From assembly GCA_964405295.1 (NCBI GenBank), contig CAYONI010000002.1, positions 59,133 to 123,132 on the forward strand: DNA of 64,000 nucleotides, written 5' to 3'. The translations under genes and the position numbers were made by a program. The DNA is from an uncultured Methanosarcinales archaeon (GTDB taxonomy: Archaea; Nanobdellota; Nanobdellia; Woesearchaeales; CAYZNE01). The notes below the pieces were generated by a model. It saw only the letters and a program-made list of their open reading frames with translations, was not told the origin of the DNA and did no database searches. Position 1 is the stretch's first letter. Each line of letters starts with the position of its first letter. Below, in pieces: positions 40,768 through 56,412 of this stretch.

Positions 40768-41652
40768 ATGGTCTTAGAACATCTTGTTTCAGAGAAGATT
40801 TTAGAGAAAAAGCTTAGTTATGTGTTTTTCCTAGGAGTAATATATTCTGTTATAGGAATCTTTATTGCATCTATCTTATTTCCTGCAGATCCTTCTCTGG
40901 TGGCTGTTGCATTCACTGCAATTCTTCTTATTCCTAGTATTAGAAAAATATATCGGATTGAAGAGAAACAAGCGAAGCAAGAAAAGAAATTTTCATTCAA
41001 GGCCATATGGCGAGATGAGAATGATTTTATTAAAGTATATCTGCTTTTGATGTTGGGAATATTTTTAGTTTACTCAATTTCTGCTTTGATTCTGCCTAGT
41101 TTTCAAATTAATTCATTGTTTCGAGATCAATTAGAACTTCGGGGTGCAGGTGCTATTGATAATCTTGCAGGAAATGCGTTTTCATTTTCAAATTCTTTGT
41201 TTACGTCATTATTATTAAATAATGTTTTAGTTTTAATTGCCTGTGTAATTCTGGCTTTTTTGACAGGTGATGGCGCAATATTTCTGTTAACTTGGAACGC
41301 CAGTTTATGGGGTACCATATTTGGTGTTACTGCCAGGAATGCCAGTCTTGTTTCTAGCATAAATCCAATTGTATTATTGCTATTAATTTTAGTTATTGTT
41401 TTACCTCACGCGATTTTAGAGATGTTGGGTTATATTCTCGGTGCAATAGGTGGTGGATTAATTTCTAGCGATATAGAAGTTGACATTGGAGAGAGGAAAC
41501 GGGATAGATTTAAGAAAACTTATTGGAAGATGGCAATGTGGATCCTGATTATTGCTGTAGTTGTGATAGTTGCAGGTGTCCTTGTGGAAACTTTTGTTCT
41601 TGAGAATGTCAGTATTTATGCAAAGATAATTCAGCAGAGTTATTTAGTTTAA
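40768..41652 (+). CDS. SpoIIM/DUF95-family membrane protein
   Basis: LPHAILEMLGYILGAIGGG motif; multiple TMs. Confidence 0.5.
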   Translation: MVLEHLVSEKILEKKLSYVFFLGVIYSVIGIFIASILFPADPSLVAVAFTAILLIPSIRKIYRIEEKQAKQEKKFSFKAIWRDENDFIKVYLLLMLGIFLVYSISALILPSFQINSLFRDQLELRGAGAIDNLAGNAFSFSNSLFTSLLLNNVLVLIACVILAFLTGDGAIFLLTWNASLWGTIFGVTARNASLVSSINPIVLLLLILVIVLPHAILEMLGYILGAIGGGLISSDIEVDIGERKRDRFKKTYWKMAMWILIIAVVVIVAGVLVETFVLENVSIYAKIIQQSYLV

Positions 41653-41655
41653 TTA

Positions 41656-41952
41656 TTATCTCTTTTTTTCTGCTTTACTTACTAAACCTAGAACTGTGGA
41701 TATAAGTGTAATCCAAATTATTCCTGTAAGTATTTGTTGGAGAAAAGCATACCACCCATTAAAATGGATGTAGAATGCTGCAGCGATTATTCCAACAGTA
41801 AGTGTAAGTGGTATTAGTCTTTTAATTAGTTTTAACACAGGAGTTTTTGCTGGTTTTTTTGGTCCTAATTTATCTATTATATCTTGAAGCACTCTCTCTT
41901 TTTGTAATCTTAACTCCTTCTCTTCTGCTAATTTTTTCTTTGATTTTTTCAT
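41656..41952 (-). CDS. small membrane protein (hypothetical)
   Basis: Basic N-terminus, then two TM helices. Confidence 0.35.
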   Translation of the reverse strand: MKKSKKKLAEEKELRLQKERVLQDIIDKLGPKKPAKTPVLKLIKRLIPLTLTVGIIAAAFYIHFNGWYAFLQQILTGIIWITLISTVLGLVSKAEKKR

Positions 41953-41973: not shown

Positions 41974-42013
41974 TTATCTGTATGAAAGTAAAATATCCCT
42001 CCCCCCAGACTTG
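41974..42013. repeat. 40-bp direct repeat, distal copy of the tRNA-Tyr 3' end plus flank
   Basis: 39/40 identical to 42073-42112; contains the last 18 nt of tRNA-Tyr but lacks the rest of the gene. Confidence 0.8.
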
Positions 42014-42072
42014 CACTCAAACTTTGTTTGGTGCCTCGCTTTGCTTCGGAACAAGTTCCAGTCTGCGTTGGA

Positions 42073-42112
42073 TTATCTGTATGGAAGTAAAATATCCCTC
42101 CCCCCAGACTTG
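42073..42112. repeat. 40-bp direct repeat, tRNA-proximal copy
   Basis: Spans the tRNA-Tyr T-loop to the discriminator base plus 22 nt of 3' flank. Confidence 0.8.
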
Positions 42113-42220
42113 AACCGGGGACCTTTCGGTTACGGCTGGTTATGTTTCATTTCTGTCCTTTCGGGTTAAGATCGCATAACTTCTACAGCCGAACGCTCTA
42201 GCCAACTGAGCTAGGGAGGG
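42095..42220 (-). tRNA. tRNA-Tyr(GTA) with 52-nt bulge-helix-bulge intron at 37/38
   Basis: Minus-strand cloverleaf read by eye. Acceptor CCCTCCC/GGGAGGG gives C1-G72, the archaeal Tyr identity element. D arm TAGCTCAGTTGGCTAGAGCG; anticodon loop CTGTAGA. The intron 3' end CAGCCG pairs with CGGCTG of the anticodon stem-loop. T arm CCCGGTTCAAGTCTGGG; CCA is not encoded. Confidence 0.8.
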
Positions 42221-42340
42221 ATACTTCTAAGAATCTATATTTTCTTTATAAAGTTTTTTGCACTGGCACTGGACATTTGTCTGTGAGCTATATAAAGAAT
42301 TTATACTATAAAGATATTGTAATCAAAAGAGGTGATTTAG

Positions 42341-42463
42341 ATGATATCAGTACAAGCATATGGTAGAGCAAACGTTTTTAGGGCATTGTTTAGGTCAAGG
42401 AGAGGGTGGATAAGAATGTATATTCCTTTCAATAATATGGACACACATGAGGAGGAATGCTAA
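42341..42463 (+). CDS. sORF1, 40-aa Arg-rich peptide
   Basis: SD AGAGGTGA 7 nt upstream. Sequence MISVQAYGRANVFRALFRSRRGWIRMYIPFNNMDTHEEEC; a TATA-like GCTATATAAAG lies ~45 bp upstream. Confidence 0.35.
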   Translation: MISVQAYGRANVFRALFRSRRGWIRMYIPFNNMDTHEEEC

Positions 42464-42464
42464 T

Positions 42465-42527
42465 ATGGGAAAACAATTAAAAATGATTGTTTTTGCGCAT
42501 TATAATTTTGGAGGAAAATTAGAATGA
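42465..42527 (+). CDS. sORF2, 20-aa peptide
   Basis: MGKQLKMIVFAHYNFGGKLE; starts 1 nt after the sORF1 stop and contains a GGAGG SD for sORF3. Confidence 0.3.
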   Translation: MGKQLKMIVFAHYNFGGKLE

Positions 42528-42643
42528 ATACTAAGGAAACATTAAATGCAAACGTTACAGAAATAAATTCGTTATTTTTCAATCAAGTAAAAGTTATGAC
42601 ATCAAGAAATCTGAGATCTTTTGATTCTCAGTTTGTAGCATGA
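42524..42643 (+). CDS. sORF3, 39-aa peptide
   Basis: GGAGGAAAATTAGA precedes the ATG; ATGA overlap with the sORF2 stop. Confidence 0.35.
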   Translation: MNTKETLNANVTEINSLFFNQVKVMTSRNLRSFDSQFVA

Positions 42644-42652
42644 GGTGATAAA

Positions 42653-42781
42653 ATGAAGAAATATGCATCAAAAAAAGAAATTTATTCAGATGAAGTATCA
42701 AAATTATTAGTAGATTCAAACTTGATTTCAGTAGAAGAATCAAAATCTTTTAGAAATTATATTCTCAGTGCCGCGATTTAA
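42653..42781 (+). CDS. sORF4, 42-aa acidic peptide
   Basis: GAGGTGATAAA precedes the ATG. Sequence MKKYASKKEIYSDEVSKLLVDSNLISVEESKSFRNYILSAAI. Confidence 0.35.
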   Translation: MKKYASKKEIYSDEVSKLLVDSNLISVEESKSFRNYILSAAI

Positions 42782-45550: not shown

Positions 45551-45625
45551 GGGCCCGTGGCCTAGCTTGGATATGGCGACGGCCTTCTAAGCCGTAGATC
45601 GAGGGTTCGAATCCCCCCGGGCTCA
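45551..45625 (+). tRNA. tRNA-Arg(TCT)
   Basis: 75-nt cloverleaf: acceptor GGGCCCG/CGGGCTC, anticodon stem ACGGC/GCCGT with loop CTTCTAA, T loop TTCGAAT, discriminator A; oligo-T follows. Confidence 0.85.
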
Positions 45626-45702
45626 TTTATTTTTTTATTTTATTTGGGATTTGACAAGAGTTCCAAATACCTTTTTAAACATAATATTACTTCTGTTGAA
45701 TT

Positions 45703-45957
45703 ATGCAATATGATTTAGAGATTCCTAGGATTATAGAAGAAATCAAGAGTAATGATGCAAAGAATGTTCTTTTGCAGTTACCTGATGGTTTGAAACCTAA
45801 AGCAAAGGAAATAGTTGATTCTGTAAGAAAAGAGTTAGATGTAAATTTATTTATTTGGTCTGGTACTAATTTTGGTGCTTGTGATATCCCCTTACATTTA
45901 GAAAAGTTAGGAATTGATTTAATATTGCATTTTGGGCATTCAGAGTTTAAACGATGA
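45703..45957 (+). CDS. dph2: diphthamide synthase Dph2, N-terminal fragment (domain 1) of a split gene
   Basis: NVLLQLPDGLKPKAKEI and NFGACDIPLHLEKLGIDLILHFGHS match the Dph2 N-domain including the first cluster Cys. The stop overlaps the next start (ATGA). Confidence 0.7.
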   Translation: MQYDLEIPRIIEEIKSNDAKNVLLQLPDGLKPKAKEIVDSVRKELDVNLFIWSGTNFGACDIPLHLEKLGIDLILHFGHSEFKR

Positions 45958-46616
45958 AAATAAAATATTTTGAAACAAGATCAAGTATAAGTTTACCTAA
46001 AATAACCCAGGAGTTAATTGATTTAGTTAAAGGTAAATCTGTTGCACTCTTTACAACAGTTCAATTTCTAGAACAAAGAAATAACTTAGCTGTCGATTTA
46101 TTAAAATATTGTAAGATTATTAATATGAAACTTGCTCACTGTAAATATCCTGATCAAATTCTAGGCTGTAGTGCTTTTGATTCTGAAATTCCTGAAAAAC
46201 CTGATTTATTTATCTATCTGGGTGATGGGGTTTTTCATCCAAAATCTCTTGTATTAAAAGATGTCGTAGATGAAGTTTATTGTCTATCACCAATTGATTT
46301 TTCAATTAAGAAGATTATCAAAGAAGATGTTTCAAGTTTAATCAAAAAGAGAAATGGTGCACTAAGTGGATTTGCCATTGCAAAGAATGTTGGTGTTTTA
46401 ATAACAACAAAACCAGGGCAAAACAATTTAAAGAAAGCTTTAGAGTTAAAAACTGATAAGAATATTTATTATTTCTTAGATGATACCATTAATTTTGCAG
46501 AACTTGAAAACTTTAATTTCATAGATTGCTGGGTTAACACTGCTTGTCCAAGAATTGCATATGATGATTTTATTAAGATAGGTAAACCAATTGTTAATTT
46601 AGGTGACTTGCAATGA
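45954..46616 (+). CDS. dph2: diphthamide synthase Dph2, C-terminal fragment (domains 2-3)
   Basis: Contains the remaining conserved Cys residues (LGCSAFD, NTACPRIA). Confidence 0.7.
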   Translation: MKIKYFETRSSISLPKITQELIDLVKGKSVALFTTVQFLEQRNNLAVDLLKYCKIINMKLAHCKYPDQILGCSAFDSEIPEKPDLFIYLGDGVFHPKSLVLKDVVDEVYCLSPIDFSIKKIIKEDVSSLIKKRNGALSGFAIAKNVGVLITTKPGQNNLKKALELKTDKNIYYFLDDTINFAELENFNFIDCWVNTACPRIAYDDFIKIGKPIVNLGDLQ

Positions 46617-49202: not shown

Positions 49203-49240
49203 GTTTCTTTTATTAAAAAAAGAAAGTTTACACTAAGATA

Positions 49241-49320
49241 TTAGGGAGGGATTCGAACCCTCGAACCCACTAAGGGAGCAGATTGGTAATCTGCCGAGTT
49301 TGACCACTTCTCTACCCTCA
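49241..49320 (-). pseudogene. tRNA-like fragment (no valid acceptor stem)
   Basis: Minus strand has a D-arm-like segment and stem-loop GCAGA-TTACCAA-TCTGC. Its T arm GAGGGTTCGAATCCCTC shares a 17-mer TCGAGGGTTCGAATCCC with tRNA-Arg and an 11-mer ATCCCTCCCTA with tRNA-Tyr. The 5' and 3' ends cannot pair. Confidence 0.3.
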
Positions 49321-49348
49321 TATAAAATGTATGAGAATTAACTTGAGG

Positions 49349-49839: not shown

Positions 49840-51045
49840 TTAATCTTCTTTATAGACATTTGGGAATCCTCCTAATACACCCTCTCTATAATAATCACCA
49901 TAGTTTTTGTTAATTTTGGGGTTATTCTTGACTATATTATGAAGATTAATTATTTTACTAACAGAATCTTCTTTTTCAATTATATTTATTTGATCACTTC
50001 TTAAATAATTAAGGATTTCTGGTTGATGAGTTGTAAATAATAATTGAGATTTATTGTCTTTTTTTGTAAAGTAATTTATAATAAATTCAACTATTTCAAT
50101 ATTAAAAGATGTTTCAATTTCATCATAAAGTATAATGGAATCCTTATTCAATTTGAATAGTGTGAAAAATAGTAATATGAACTTTTTAGTTCCACTTGAT
50201 TCTCCATTGAAATTTATTTTTAAATCTGCTTTATTGTGTTTATGTATTAAAATTAAATCTGTTACTGGCACTTTTTTTGTGGGTTGTTTTATAATTTCTT
50301 CATTATTTATTTTATATTCAATTTCTTCTCTAACTGATTTAACTAATTCTAAATCTTTTATCGAAAAATCAGCATATGTTAGAACATCTAATAATTCTTC
50401 CTTTAATCCTGAATCTTTTAACAAAGAGAAATCGGGGGGTTGATTAAATAAATTATTCGCTACAAATAGTTTAGTAAAAAAATCATATATTGGTTTTAAT
50501 GTGGCTGAGTTTAATTGCACCGCTCTTGATAACATTAAAGTTTGAGGAATGACACTTTTAGATAATATTTTTAATTCTTTTTCATATTTTCGATTGCTGA
50601 ATTCGAATTTTTTATTAGTTTTATTTTCGTTTCTTAAAAAAATTTCAGTCGGTTTTTGTGTTTGATAAACTACTGCATACTCTTTTATAATTTTTTTATT
50701 AGTATACGAGAATCCATAAATGTATTTTTTATTGTTTGAAAAAAATGTAATCTCAAATTCTGTTGGTTTATCTGGCGTGCTAATAAATGGTGAATATTTT
50801 ATATTTGTATCTATATTATGTTTTTGGGAATTTAAAACCATTTCTTTCATAAAATTTAATGCTGAAAGTAGAGATGTCTTTCCAGATCCATTAACTCCTA
50901 CGAGTCCAGATATTTTTAAAGTATCTATATTATTTTGCTGATTAATAAATTGTTCTCCTCTACTTTCTTTTGATTTTTTTTCAAATTTCAAAATTTCTTC
51001 ATTTTTATATGAATTAAAGTTTTTTAGTTTAAATTCGATTATCAT
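49840..51045 (-). CDS. AAA_21/AAA_15-type ABC-like ATPase (defence-associated family)
   Basis: Walker A GLVGVNGSGKTS, signature-like NGESSGTKKF, Walker B ILYDEIETS, H-loop LLFTTHQPE. Confidence 0.7.
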   Translation of the reverse strand: MIIEFKLKNFNSYKNEEILKFEKKSKESRGEQFINQQNNIDTLKISGLVGVNGSGKTSLLSALNFMKEMVLNSQKHNIDTNIKYSPFISTPDKPTEFEITFFSNNKKYIYGFSYTNKKIIKEYAVVYQTQKPTEIFLRNENKTNKKFEFSNRKYEKELKILSKSVIPQTLMLSRAVQLNSATLKPIYDFFTKLFVANNLFNQPPDFSLLKDSGLKEELLDVLTYADFSIKDLELVKSVREEIEYKINNEEIIKQPTKKVPVTDLILIHKHNKADLKINFNGESSGTKKFILLFFTLFKLNKDSIILYDEIETSFNIEIVEFIINYFTKKDNKSQLLFTTHQPEILNYLRSDQINIIEKEDSVSKIINLHNIVKNNPKINKNYGDYYREGVLGGFPNVYKED

Positions 51046-55575: not shown

Positions 55576-56412
55576 ATGGATTATATGTTAGATGAAGCTA
55601 AAAAACAGGATTATCTGCAGAGAATTGCTGATGAGTGTAAATTAAGGGGTTTTAGCAGGCAAACTTTGAAAGCTTATTCTTATTGGATTGCAAAATATTT
55701 GGATTTTATTATTAAAAATAGGTTTAATTTGGGAAATTCTAGTGTTAGGTATTATTTCCTAAGTTTAGATTTGAGTGTGAATTCTTCAAGATTATGCTAT
55801 GCAGCTCTAAGATTTTTCTTCGCTAATATTCTGAACAGACCTTTTACAACCGATGAAATTCCTATTAAGAAGAAAGAAAAAACTTTGCCTAAAGTATTAT
55901 CTAAGCAACAAATTAAATTAATATTAAATGAAACCAAAAATCTTAAACATAAACTAGTTATTGAGGTGCTTTATTCAACTGGGTTGAGATTGCAAGAATT
56001 AATTAATCTTAAAAGAGCTGATATTGATTTTGATAATAATACTTTGTTTGTTAGAAAAGGCAAAGGTAAGAAGGATAGACTCACAATTATTTCTGAAAAT
56101 ATTAAATTAGATTTATTAAAATATTATAGTCAATACGAATTTAAAACAAATTATGTGTTTGAAGGTAGAAAGGGTAAATATTCTAAAAAGTCTGTTCAAT
56201 TAATTCTACACAATACAAGTAAAAAACTTAAATTTAGAATTCATCCTCATATGTTAAGACACTCTTTTGCAACTCATTTATTAGAGCAGGGAACTGACAT
56301 AAGAATTATACAGAAGCTTCTTGGCCATTCTGATCTTAACACAACAGAAATTTACACAAGAGTTGCAAATAAGAATTTAAAGAAAATCAAGAATCCTCTA
56401 GATAGTATTTAA
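55576..56412 (+). CDS. tyrosine recombinase (XerA/XerC/D family)
   Basis: C-terminal catalytic region HPHMLRHSFATHLLEQGTDIRIIQKLLGHSDLNTTEIYTRV (R..H..R..Y); N-terminal core-binding domain. Confidence 0.85.
   Translation: MDYMLDEAKKQDYLQRIADECKLRGFSRQTLKAYSYWIAKYLDFIIKNRFNLGNSSVRYYFLSLDLSVNSSRLCYAALRFFFANILNRPFTTDEIPIKKKEKTLPKVLSKQQIKLILNETKNLKHKLVIEVLYSTGLRLQELINLKRADIDFDNNTLFVRKGKGKKDRLTIISENIKLDLLKYYSQYEFKTNYVFEGRKGKYSKKSVQLILHNTSKKLKFRIHPHMLRHSFATHLLEQGTDIRIIQKLLGHSDLNTTEIYTRVANKNLKKIKNPLDSI

Follow-up and report, generated by a model that had tools for sequence, protein, structure and literature searches.

A recurrent short module, possibly of attachment-site type, inserted with target duplication behind tRNA-Tyr and tRNA-Arg(TCT) genes of DPANN-type archaea

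Attachment (att) sites of archaeal elements are usually 40 to 50 bp long, lie preferentially at the 3' ends of tRNA genes, and may extend outside the gene; few archaeal tRNA genes are targeted as often as tRNA-Arg(TCT) (PMC8371274). Fragments of tRNA genes are common as footprints of integration (PMC9897764). The locus described here lies in a 64,000-nt stretch of contig CAYONI010000002.1 (positions 59,133 to 123,132; hereafter the window, within which all coordinates are counted) and carries a 99-bp insertion behind an intron-containing tRNA-Tyr gene. The insertion consists of a 56-nt module, termed K, and a duplicate of 43 bp, which extend from T-loop position 56/57 past the 3' end of the tRNA and include 22 nt of native flank (Table 1). 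The tRNA-Tyr gene is left intact, and a nonfunctional 3' fragment of it sits 56 nt downstream. The window (~30% G+C) is, judged by its genes, part of a DPANN-type archaeal chromosome, because it encodes core archaeal proteins (Orc1/Cdc6, ribosomal protein L34e, split Dph2, TYW1, SMC, topoisomerase, and aminoacyl-tRNA synthetases) and because the public genomes related to it carry the label Woesearchaeota, Nanobdellati, or "uncultured archaeon". The related contigs or loci that were compared with it are referred to by L-numbers (L001, L015, L034, and so on).

Three other kinds of described system serve as points of reference. Bacterial cis-mobilizable elements (CIMEs) are flanked by att sites, lack recombination genes of their own, are moved by a related element, and are kilobases long. 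Typical transposons duplicate 2 to 15 bp of their target. In the attP site of phage CTX and the attC site of integrons, inverted segments located tens of nucleotides apart pair in single-stranded DNA (ssDNA) and rebuild a target-like duplex.

The direct repeat of the window comprises 43 nt with 2 mismatches (41/43 identical), namely 21 nt of the tRNA, from the T-loop to A73, and 22 nt of its flank. The original prediction had described a 40-nt repeat with a single mismatch; the repeat is real, and the 40 nt form the inner part of its fuller extent. A 28-nt core of this repeat occurs exactly twice in the window, versus 0.00 occurrences expected from shuffled sequences. The 56-nt spacer that separates the two copies is K, whose G+C content is 48%, versus ~30% in the genome and in the neighboring intergenic DNA.

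Contigs with an empty site were found by way of the downstream 98-aa gene, of which they carry a copy with 90% identity; L019 was added to them. In seven relatives (L015, L016, L018, L021, L022, L025, and L019), the segment is present in a single copy and equals the window minus exactly 99 bp: the 3' end of the tRNA is followed by TATTTTACTTCCATACAGATAA and then by CTACTCTATCTATTTTAGAAAATG (CTAC..ATG), once each. Because these relatives hold the flank once, the 22-nt flank within the repeat is native chromosomal DNA, and it is the window that carries an insertion. Accordingly, the 99 bp were truly inserted, with duplication of the target, and are not a tandem repeat formed in place. These loci agree with the original prediction of an att-like, insertion-type duplication, which had proposed a search for unduplicated loci in related genomes, and the length of 43 bp fits the published sites. 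The same proposal extended to relatives with an integrated element between the repeats; no such genome was found among the relatives compared.

Filled tRNA-Tyr sites, with the order repeat-K-repeat, are present in the window, in L001 and L002 (identical to it), and in L012, L034, and L035, which represent one sister species. There, the arrangement and its boundaries are the same, and the spacer is ~80% identical to that of the window. In the distal copy of L034, the tRNA part has decayed (5 differences), and the flank part is 22/22 identical to that of its own proximal copy, including a lineage-specific change. A shared arrangement of this kind, with no element between the repeats, had been regarded in the original prediction as a sign of simple local duplication. 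The arrangement is indeed shared, but it does not point to local duplication alone, since the spacer does not belong to the locus and is found again at other sites.

By its flanking proteins, the window groups with the empty-site locus L015 (95% identity in SpoIIM and Orc1, versus 90 to 92% to L034), whereas its tRNA-Tyr gene groups with that of L034 (shared A57 and intron positions), so that the window locus is a mosaic. As read from these sequences, the history may have involved either a precise loss of K in L015 or the spread of the filled allele by recombination. The relatedness of L019 switches within tRNA-Tyr: downstream of the T-loop it is identical to L015, and upstream it is only ~80% identical and carries other genes, which may reflect either a recombination breakpoint in the tRNA gene or a chimeric assembly. 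Gene content in the interval between the SpoIIM-family gene (40768 to 41652) and tRNA-Tyr differs in almost every lineage, with gene sets of 98 aa; 180 and 98 aa; 405 aa; 356 aa; 96 and 161 aa; and 83, 94, and 227 aa. On the 5' side of tRNA-Tyr, some lineages have an inserted nucleotidyltransferase (NTP_transf_2) gene and an adjacent 134-aa gene. By this comparison of gene content, tRNA-Tyr marks a hot spot of gene turnover. In more distant relatives, reached through homologues of the neighboring HTH_10 gene (P0012 and P0014), synteny with the tRNA is lost, and neither tRNA nor K was found there; nor was either found in same-genome sequence beyond the window (L060 to L062). A search for an empty site of the L026 lineage through its 356-aa neighbor returned only the same contig.

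Homologues of K are found 3' of tRNA-Tyr in two other lineages (L034 and L026) and 3' of tRNA-Arg(TCT) in at least three (L034, L004, and L015); the latter were detected by a block search and then by a profile search (nhmmer E values of 1e-15 to 3.5e-4). The family search covered the recovered related loci and yielded about six copies from one narrow clade. K is present in six lineage-by-locus combinations, and both filled and empty sites are found. At tRNA-Tyr of L026, the repeat is 31 nt long (GAATCTGGGGGGAGGGACTTTTTAATTCTAA), its copies are 100% identical, and it is built of L026's own T-loop variant and own flank; three blocks, TCYAACSCAGA, GAACTTGTTCCG, and CGAGGCRCCAA, are common to its 82-nt spacer and that of the window. 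At tRNA-Arg, L034 and the window form a filled/empty pair: K and a duplicate of GAATCC..CTCATTTATTTTTAATT occupy, in L034, a site that is empty in the window, and the duplicated flank is L034's own. The tRNA-Arg copy of L034 is ~90% identical to that of L004 (counted from alignments), whereas the hosts share only ~71% identity in the SpoIIM protein and their tRNA flanks are unalignable, which suggests recent spread of K or selection on it.

Several of the tRNA-Arg loci bear traces of earlier or different events. Behind tRNA-Arg of the window, GGGATTTGACAAGAGTTCC resembles the start of K (the inverted T-arm piece and the GAAC..GTTCC hairpin), which is intact in L004 and L015; in L034, the same remnant is preceded by a fresh full copy of K. 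The K copy of L015 (4748 to 4830, minus strand) combines an Arg-type inverted piece with a Tyr-like distal piece, CAAATCTGAGCATTGGTTTTTTTAC, while its own tRNA-Tyr site is empty, and could have arisen by conversion or movement between the Arg and Tyr loci. An insert of another kind, 117 nt long and bounded by the perfect duplicate CGAATCCCTCTGGGCTCAT, lies in the spacer between tRNA-Arg and tRNA-Cys in L019 (3500 to 3830, minus strand). In this spacer and in that of L026 (10600 to 10940, plus strand), there are decayed T-arm fragments in both orientations and small hairpins. These observations suggest repeated events at tRNA-Arg. Decay is also seen in K itself, as the tRNA-Tyr module of L034 drifts toward A+T and has its first hairpin broken, and the tRNA-Arg copy of the window is truncated.

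The order of parts is the same in every copy. The intact tRNA is followed by a few to 30 nt of flank, an inverted copy of the T-loop and the T-stem 3' strand that ends in GAAC, 2 to 3 nt, the motif GTTCYG(T/A)AG, a variable hairpin, CGAGGCRCC, an AT-rich hairpin, TTGAGTG, and finally the direct copy, which runs from T-loop position ~57 to the end of the tRNA and into the flank. Each copy is bounded by its own lineage's sequence, and all junctions lie at the T-loop GTTC / RA(A/G)TC. In all six copies compared, the inverted piece matches its cognate tRNA better than the other tRNA type. Within single lineages this match is not significant on its own (p = 0.06 to 0.18), so the inverted piece appears convincing only through its target-specific recurrence. 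Copies of K measure 56, 58, and 82 nt and have no coding capacity that survives these length differences. The RNAalifold consensus is cloverleaf-like, with a closing stem formed by the inverted piece and the start of the distal repeat and with three hairpins, in which 6 pairs are changed on both sides. When folded as ssDNA, 4 of the 5 K copies have z scores of -1.8 to -3.4. Scans of both strands of K against Rfam, at the gathering threshold and at lax E values, returned only noise and no family match.

Table 1. Positions of the tRNA genes, repeat copies, and parts of K in the window
Feature	Position	Strand	Remarks
tRNA-Tyr(GUA) with intron	42095..42220	-	126 nt, mature form 74 nt, no encoded CCA; Rfam RF00005
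tRNA-Tyr 5' exon (positions 1-37)	42183..42220	-	Ends ...CUGUAG, i.e., anticodon GUA followed by G37
tRNA-Tyr intron, 52 nt, at 37/38	42131..42182	-	Conserved core GAUCUUAACCCGAAAGGACAGAAAUGA and internal helix GUUAUG/CAUAAC
tRNA-Tyr 3' exon (positions 38-73)	42095..42130	-	Coordinates computed from sequence
Proximal repeat copy	42073..42115	-	T-loop (G53/C56) to A73 of the working tRNA and 22 nt of native 3' flank, including a T-run
Inserted module K, 56 nt	42017..42072	-	48% G+C; absent from empty-site relatives; homologues in L034, L026, L004, and L015
Inverted degenerate copy of tRNA-Tyr T-loop/T-stem 3' strand	42055..42072	-	TCCAACGCAGACTGGAAC; reverse complement GTTCcAGTCTG vs GTTCaAGTCTG of the tRNA
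Hairpin GGAAC-TT-GTTCC	42048..42059	-	GAAC/GTTC stem invariant in the family
Conserved core block CGAGGCACCAA	42028..42038	-	Family consensus CGAGGCRCCAA
Hairpin CAAAC-AAA-GTTTG	42018..42030	-	Covaries in other copies: CAATAATT/AATTATTG, CAACAAT/ATTGTTG, CAAAA/TTTTG
Distal repeat copy	41974..42016	-	Without T-stem 5' strand, not a tRNA; 21 nt upstream of start codon 41952
Gene for predicted membrane protein, 98 aa, directly downstream	41656..41952	-	No Pfam match; served to recover empty-site relatives
tRNA-Arg(TCT), second target type	45551..45625	+	Window lacks the recent insertion seen in L034
Old truncated K remnant (probable) behind tRNA-Arg	45646..45664	+	GGGATTTGACAAGAGTTCC vs GGGATTCGAACGAAGTTCC in L004; judged by eye and alignment

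Taken together, the loci represent an insertion polymorphism with target duplication that stems from a recurrent short module: there is an exact empty site, the module recurs at two tRNA types and in several lineages, each duplication is made of the lineage's own flank, and the copies share one hairpin architecture. With a probability of about one-half, K is a miniature, nonautonomous insertion module of att type that is moved in trans. K as such would then be mobile, and its family would consist of noncoding mini-modules that insert behind tRNA-Tyr and tRNA-Arg(TCT) in this DPANN group. Each event would start in the T-loop and duplicate the 3' end of the target together with its flank, giving the order attL-K-attR. 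The reaction would be a site-specific recombination of att type, probably catalyzed by a tyrosine-type recombinase, which would act in trans from an unseen element or virus or, conceivably, from the host. Loss might proceed through recombination or replication slippage between the 43-bp copies, which would remove K precisely and restore the empty site. An origin through an att-type recombinase is the most economical one because the left limit lies in the T-loop, the duplication measures 43 bp, it extends past the gene, and tRNA-Arg(TCT) is preferred.

A number of observations weigh against this assignment. The target duplications vary in length (43, 31, ~29, ~26, and ~21 bp), as does the duplicated lineage-specific flank (22, 14, 13, ~9, and ~4 nt, as read from the sequences). 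The attB side has a natural T-arm dyad; to the left of the distal copy (..TTTGAGTG) there is no matching half-site or recognizable core dyad, and an inverted half-site is located at the other end of the module instead. Flank duplications that are lineage specific and of varying length, the missing half-site, and the inverted target copy are all a poor fit to a conservative integrase. A free 99-bp circle would, on physical grounds, be an awkward intermediate. None of the copies of K has a recombinase linked to it: the genes next to the repeats have no recombinase domain, and among the open reading frames (ORFs) of at least 120 aa in the 64-kb window, the search for integrase and transposase domains returned only a XerA-like recombinase of housekeeping type (55576 to 56412, plus strand), the sole tyrosine recombinase there, which is encoded 13 kb away and has archaeal XerA as its best match (NCBIfam NF040815, 217.3 bits; cut-off, 220). 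Exact-pattern scans of IMG/VR viral contigs for the repeat and K revealed no carrier, the genome and metagenome collections not having been scanned for them; the loosest pattern gave 17 matches, which covered only the searched part of the K profile, lay on contigs of 44 to 65% G+C, and were taken as chance. The covariation in the K hairpins could be mutational (palindrome correction) and not selected. Finally, the family consists of few sequences, about six copies from a single narrow clade.

The first three of these misfits, namely the variable lineage-specific flank, the missing half-site, and the inverted target copy, keep alive an explanation by template switching and gene conversion, which is unlikely but deserves serious consideration. 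It holds that there is no mobile element and that template switching at the replication fork, or fold-back synthesis, at highly transcribed tRNA genes would use the universal T-loop sequence GTTCRANTC as microhomology, with the K core copied between loci in the same way or by ectopic gene conversion. Such a process would account for the direct-inverted-direct succession of copies of one tRNA segment and for the hairpin into which the proximal copy, the flank, and the inverted piece fold (z = -2.75). The variable right-hand limit of a duplicate that is made of local flank is also consistent with it, as are the uniform position of the junctions, the inter-locus conversion that the Tyr-like distal piece of the L015 tRNA-Arg copy resembles, and the decayed T-arm fragments between tRNA-Arg and tRNA-Cys of L019 and L026. 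Frequent recombination is indicated, in addition, by the mosaic relatedness of the loci. However, the same multistep switch would have to recur, and neither the origin of the non-tRNA core (CGAGGCRCCAA and the AT-rich hairpin) nor the ~90% identity across distant hosts would be explained.

Rather doubtful is the possibility that the arrangement is a one-off scar, in which tRNA-Tyr received a large integrase-encoding element, of which later deletion spared only 56 bp between attL and attR. Direct repeats that overlap the 3' end of a tRNA, an empty site in relatives, and a repeat length typical of att sites would all be expected in that case, and the variable genes between tRNA-Tyr and the SpoIIM-family gene would suit an integration hot spot. 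But deletion at random would not converge on one ~55-nt module, with shared internal blocks and boundaries, in three lineages each behind tRNA-Tyr and behind tRNA-Arg, and neither the ORFs of the window nor the IMG/VR scans revealed an integrase, an element, or an attP-bearing contig. The original prediction had favored such a remnant of a deleted element; this part of it is not supported, as K recurs behind tRNA-Tyr and tRNA-Arg with target duplications of its own and no element, integrase, or viral carrier was found in these searches.

It is improbable that K is instead a selected functional element (a 3' trailer or small RNA, a terminator, or protein-binding DNA) whose repeats are kept by gene conversion. 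Conservation of blocks between hosts with otherwise unalignable intergenic DNA is in line with such a role, as are the cloverleaf-like consensus fold with its covariation, the elevated G+C content of K relative to neighboring intergenic DNA, and the 22-nt distal flank of L034, which has stayed identical while the tRNA part decayed. In contrast, the nearest relatives lack K, two of its copies (L034 tRNA-Tyr and window tRNA-Arg) are decaying, Rfam yields no match even at lax thresholds, and no promoter was identified. By analogy with attC and attP, the K modules might also make up a class of tiny (~55 to 80 nt) mobile modules, not described before, that target the tRNA T-loop in DPANN archaea and end in an inverted and a direct copy of the T-arm of their target: as ssDNA, a cloverleaf-like four-way junction would form, its closing stem would rebuild the target duplex, and insertion might proceed in an attC/attP-like manner, possibly through a XerA-type host recombinase, with retargeting from Arg to Tyr by a swap of the two end pieces; this scheme, too, is improbable. 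A chance repeat or an assembly artefact can practically be dismissed: metagenome contigs L002, L017, L020, L023, L024, and L027 do break inside or beside tRNA-Tyr, but the same repeat-spacer-repeat structure is seen in three independent assemblies of the strain (among them ENA ERZ27316756 and Logan SRR8862237, which are 100% identical over the region) and in three of the sister species, and no match is expected from shuffles.

Several other candidates were tried and rejected. A simple tandem duplication was discarded because Tandem Repeats Finder (TRF) reports no 99-nt period and K is foreign to the locus and absent from empty sites. Decay of a second tRNA copy does not account for the spacer, whose forward alignment to the tRNA is no better than that of shuffled sequences (p = 0.6 to 1.0), and the distal copy is not a split or alternative tRNA 3' half, since it lacks the T-stem 5' strand and the spacer supplies none. 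Miniature inverted-repeat transposable elements (MITEs) and other transposons were rejected on the grounds that there are no fixed terminal inverted repeats, the inverted piece following the target, and that the duplication is not constant in length. For a casposon, the duplication is too long (~14 to 15 bp would be expected), and no Cas1 or terminal inverted repeats were found. The inverted piece is not a retroelement primer-binding site, as it has no TGG to pair with CCA and matches the gene sequence, not the mature tRNA. A known RNA family was likewise discarded after the Rfam scans described above.

The tRNA-Tyr gene itself is confirmed, as the original prediction had it, as an intron-containing archaeal gene with C1-G72 and a 52-nt intron at 37/38. 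The RF00005 match on the minus strand scores 47.4 bits, versus a gathering score of 29, and contains a 55-nt insertion in the anticodon loop; the discriminator A73 is also present, and the loop reads CUGUAG, then 52 nt, then ACCGAA. The relatives yielded eight distinct versions of the gene, with near-invariant exons that differ only in the D-loop and at T-loop positions 57, 59, and 60, an invariant cloverleaf, and all four stems 100% paired. With default settings, ARAGORN misses the gene; with introns allowed, it is found, but the call varies by locus between Asn(gtt) and Tyr(gta), since the exon/intron junctions have two possible registers, shifted by 2 nt. C1-G72 and A73 are identity elements of Methanocaldococcus jannaschii tRNA-Tyr. 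The sequence favors Tyr over Asn because of these two features, the predicted mature loop CUGUAGA, and the canonical intron position, and because the last intron nucleotide (A, C, or T among the relatives) would be position 37 under Asn. Under the Asn(GUU) reading, the intron would have to lie at the noncanonical 35/36 position, and L019 and L030 would have a pyrimidine at position 37. For annotation, the lessons are that the distal tRNA fragment is not a gene and that default ARAGORN overlooks this intron-containing tRNA-Tyr, which its intron-permitting mode may report as Asn.

The helix at the splice junctions is of a bulge-helix-bulge (BHB) type only in a relaxed form. The complementarity that had been predicted between the 3' end of the intron and the anticodon stem-loop is there, with CAGCC facing G30-G34. 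The canonical BHB register, however, which pairs C32 with intron nucleotide n-2, gives the 4-bp central helix (C-G, UxC, G-C, U.G) only 3 of its 4 pairs, and the UxC mismatch is invariant in the eight sequences. The 3' bulge (U/A/A38) is correct; on the 5' side, a 4x2 loop is present in 6/8 sequences, including the window, and a 3x1 loop in 2/8, so that the window has no clean 3-nt bulge. As far as the sequences tell, the motif is therefore relaxed and not a strict hBHBh'. It shares with other archaeal intron-containing tRNA genes the canonical 37/38 position, the conserved internal helix, and the C32/n-2 pair, and it differs from strict BHB introns in the invariant UxC of the central helix and in the 5' bulge, which is enlarged in most relatives. 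In the internal helix (i3-i8 with i39-i44), three pairs differ at both of their positions among the eight sequences, and a 27-nt intron core is kept across the relatives. The core sequence GAUC-UUAA-CC[GAAA]GG-ACAGAA-AUGA is common to all of them, and its tetraloop changes from GAAA to UAAU with the stem kept. Its GAUC/AUGA segments could form tandem sheared G.A pairs and a U.U pair, resembling a kink-turn, which would make it a candidate L7Ae site.

Upstream of tRNA-Tyr, at 42244 to 42276 (read on the minus strand), the block ATGTCCAGTG-N5-GTGCAAAAAAC-TTTATAAA is kept in all relatives despite their diverged surroundings; TTTATAAA is presumably the TATA box of the tRNA gene. The TCCAGTG within this block presumably recalls archaeal origin-recognition boxes, orc1/cdc6 being located 2.8 kb away. 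Between tRNA-Tyr and the HTH_10 gene, there are three tiny ORFs on the plus strand (42341 to 42463, 42524 to 42643, and 42653 to 42781; 40, 39, and 42 aa), which have no Pfam match and are gene-called in the same order in most of the relatives that carry the locus (L015, L022, L026, L028, L030, and others). Farther along, the diphthamide synthase Dph2 (PF01866) is split, also in relatives, into two overlapping plus-strand ORFs of 84 and 220 aa (45703 to 45957 and 45954 to 46616). An odd tRNA-like gene at 49239 to 49321 (minus strand), which has an Rfam score of 38.8 bits, an ARAGORN call of "Gly(acc)", an extra arm of 13 nt, and an acceptor stem with a GxA mismatch, adjoins a 156-aa ORF of no assigned family and an AAA_21 (AbiEii-like) ATPase at 49840 to 51045.

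Intron-containing tRNA-Tyr genes and footprints of tRNA fragments are already known. No description was found of a mini-module of ~56 to 80 nt behind different tRNAs with inverted and direct ends matched to the target, in a limited literature search that was not aimed at such modules. The mobile DNA of DPANN archaea, which have tiny genomes and single-copy tRNA genes, is almost uncharted. If K truly moves, it would be among the smallest site-specific insertion units known and would show how a parasite can occupy an essential tRNA gene without breaking it; filled and empty sites behind tRNA-Tyr and tRNA-Arg could then serve as a marker for strain-level recombination in natural populations. If template switching is responsible instead, the loci would point to a recurrent mutational process at archaeal sites of transcription-replication conflict.

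Of the described systems, MITEs and casposons resemble K in being small and multicopy, with insertion polymorphism and a duplicated target, and casposons also favor the 3' ends of tRNA genes; the duplication is 21 to 43 bp and variable in K, versus ~14 nt in the Methanosarcina mazei casposon. With CTX attP and integron attC, K may share the two separated inverted segments, and the only tyrosine recombinase of the window is a host enzyme of the Xer type. However, the target of K is the T-arm of a tRNA, not dif or attI. CIMEs are similar in being flanked by att sites, in having no recombinase of their own, in their presumed movement in trans, and in the accumulation of copies beside the same tRNA, whereas K is archaeal and measures only 56 to 82 nt.

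The arrays of partial tRNA genes at integration hot spots likewise consist of 3' fragments downstream of an intact gene and include older, decayed fragments from repeated events, as do the tRNA-Arg flanks described here (PMC9897764). Partial 3' tRNA fragments are also reported from the tycheposon islands (bioRxiv 10.1101/2020.12.28.424599). In both, by these accounts, the fragments flank or once flanked islands of many kilobases, whereas here they enclose a conserved mini-module. The attL and attR sites of archaeal tyrosine integrases (SSV-, pNOB8-, and pT26-2/pTN3-type; PMC8371274) have the most in common with the present locus: the repeat, which begins within a tRNA loop and continues beyond the gene, covers the 3' part of a tRNA that stays intact, its 43 bp are within the usual 40 to 50 bp, tRNA-Arg(TCT) is a favored target, and relatives have an empty site. 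The locus differs from them in that only 56 nt separate the repeats, with no integrase or cargo, and in that the same short insert is found at different tRNAs and in different lineages, each time with a duplicated flank specific to the lineage and an inverted copy of the T-arm inside.

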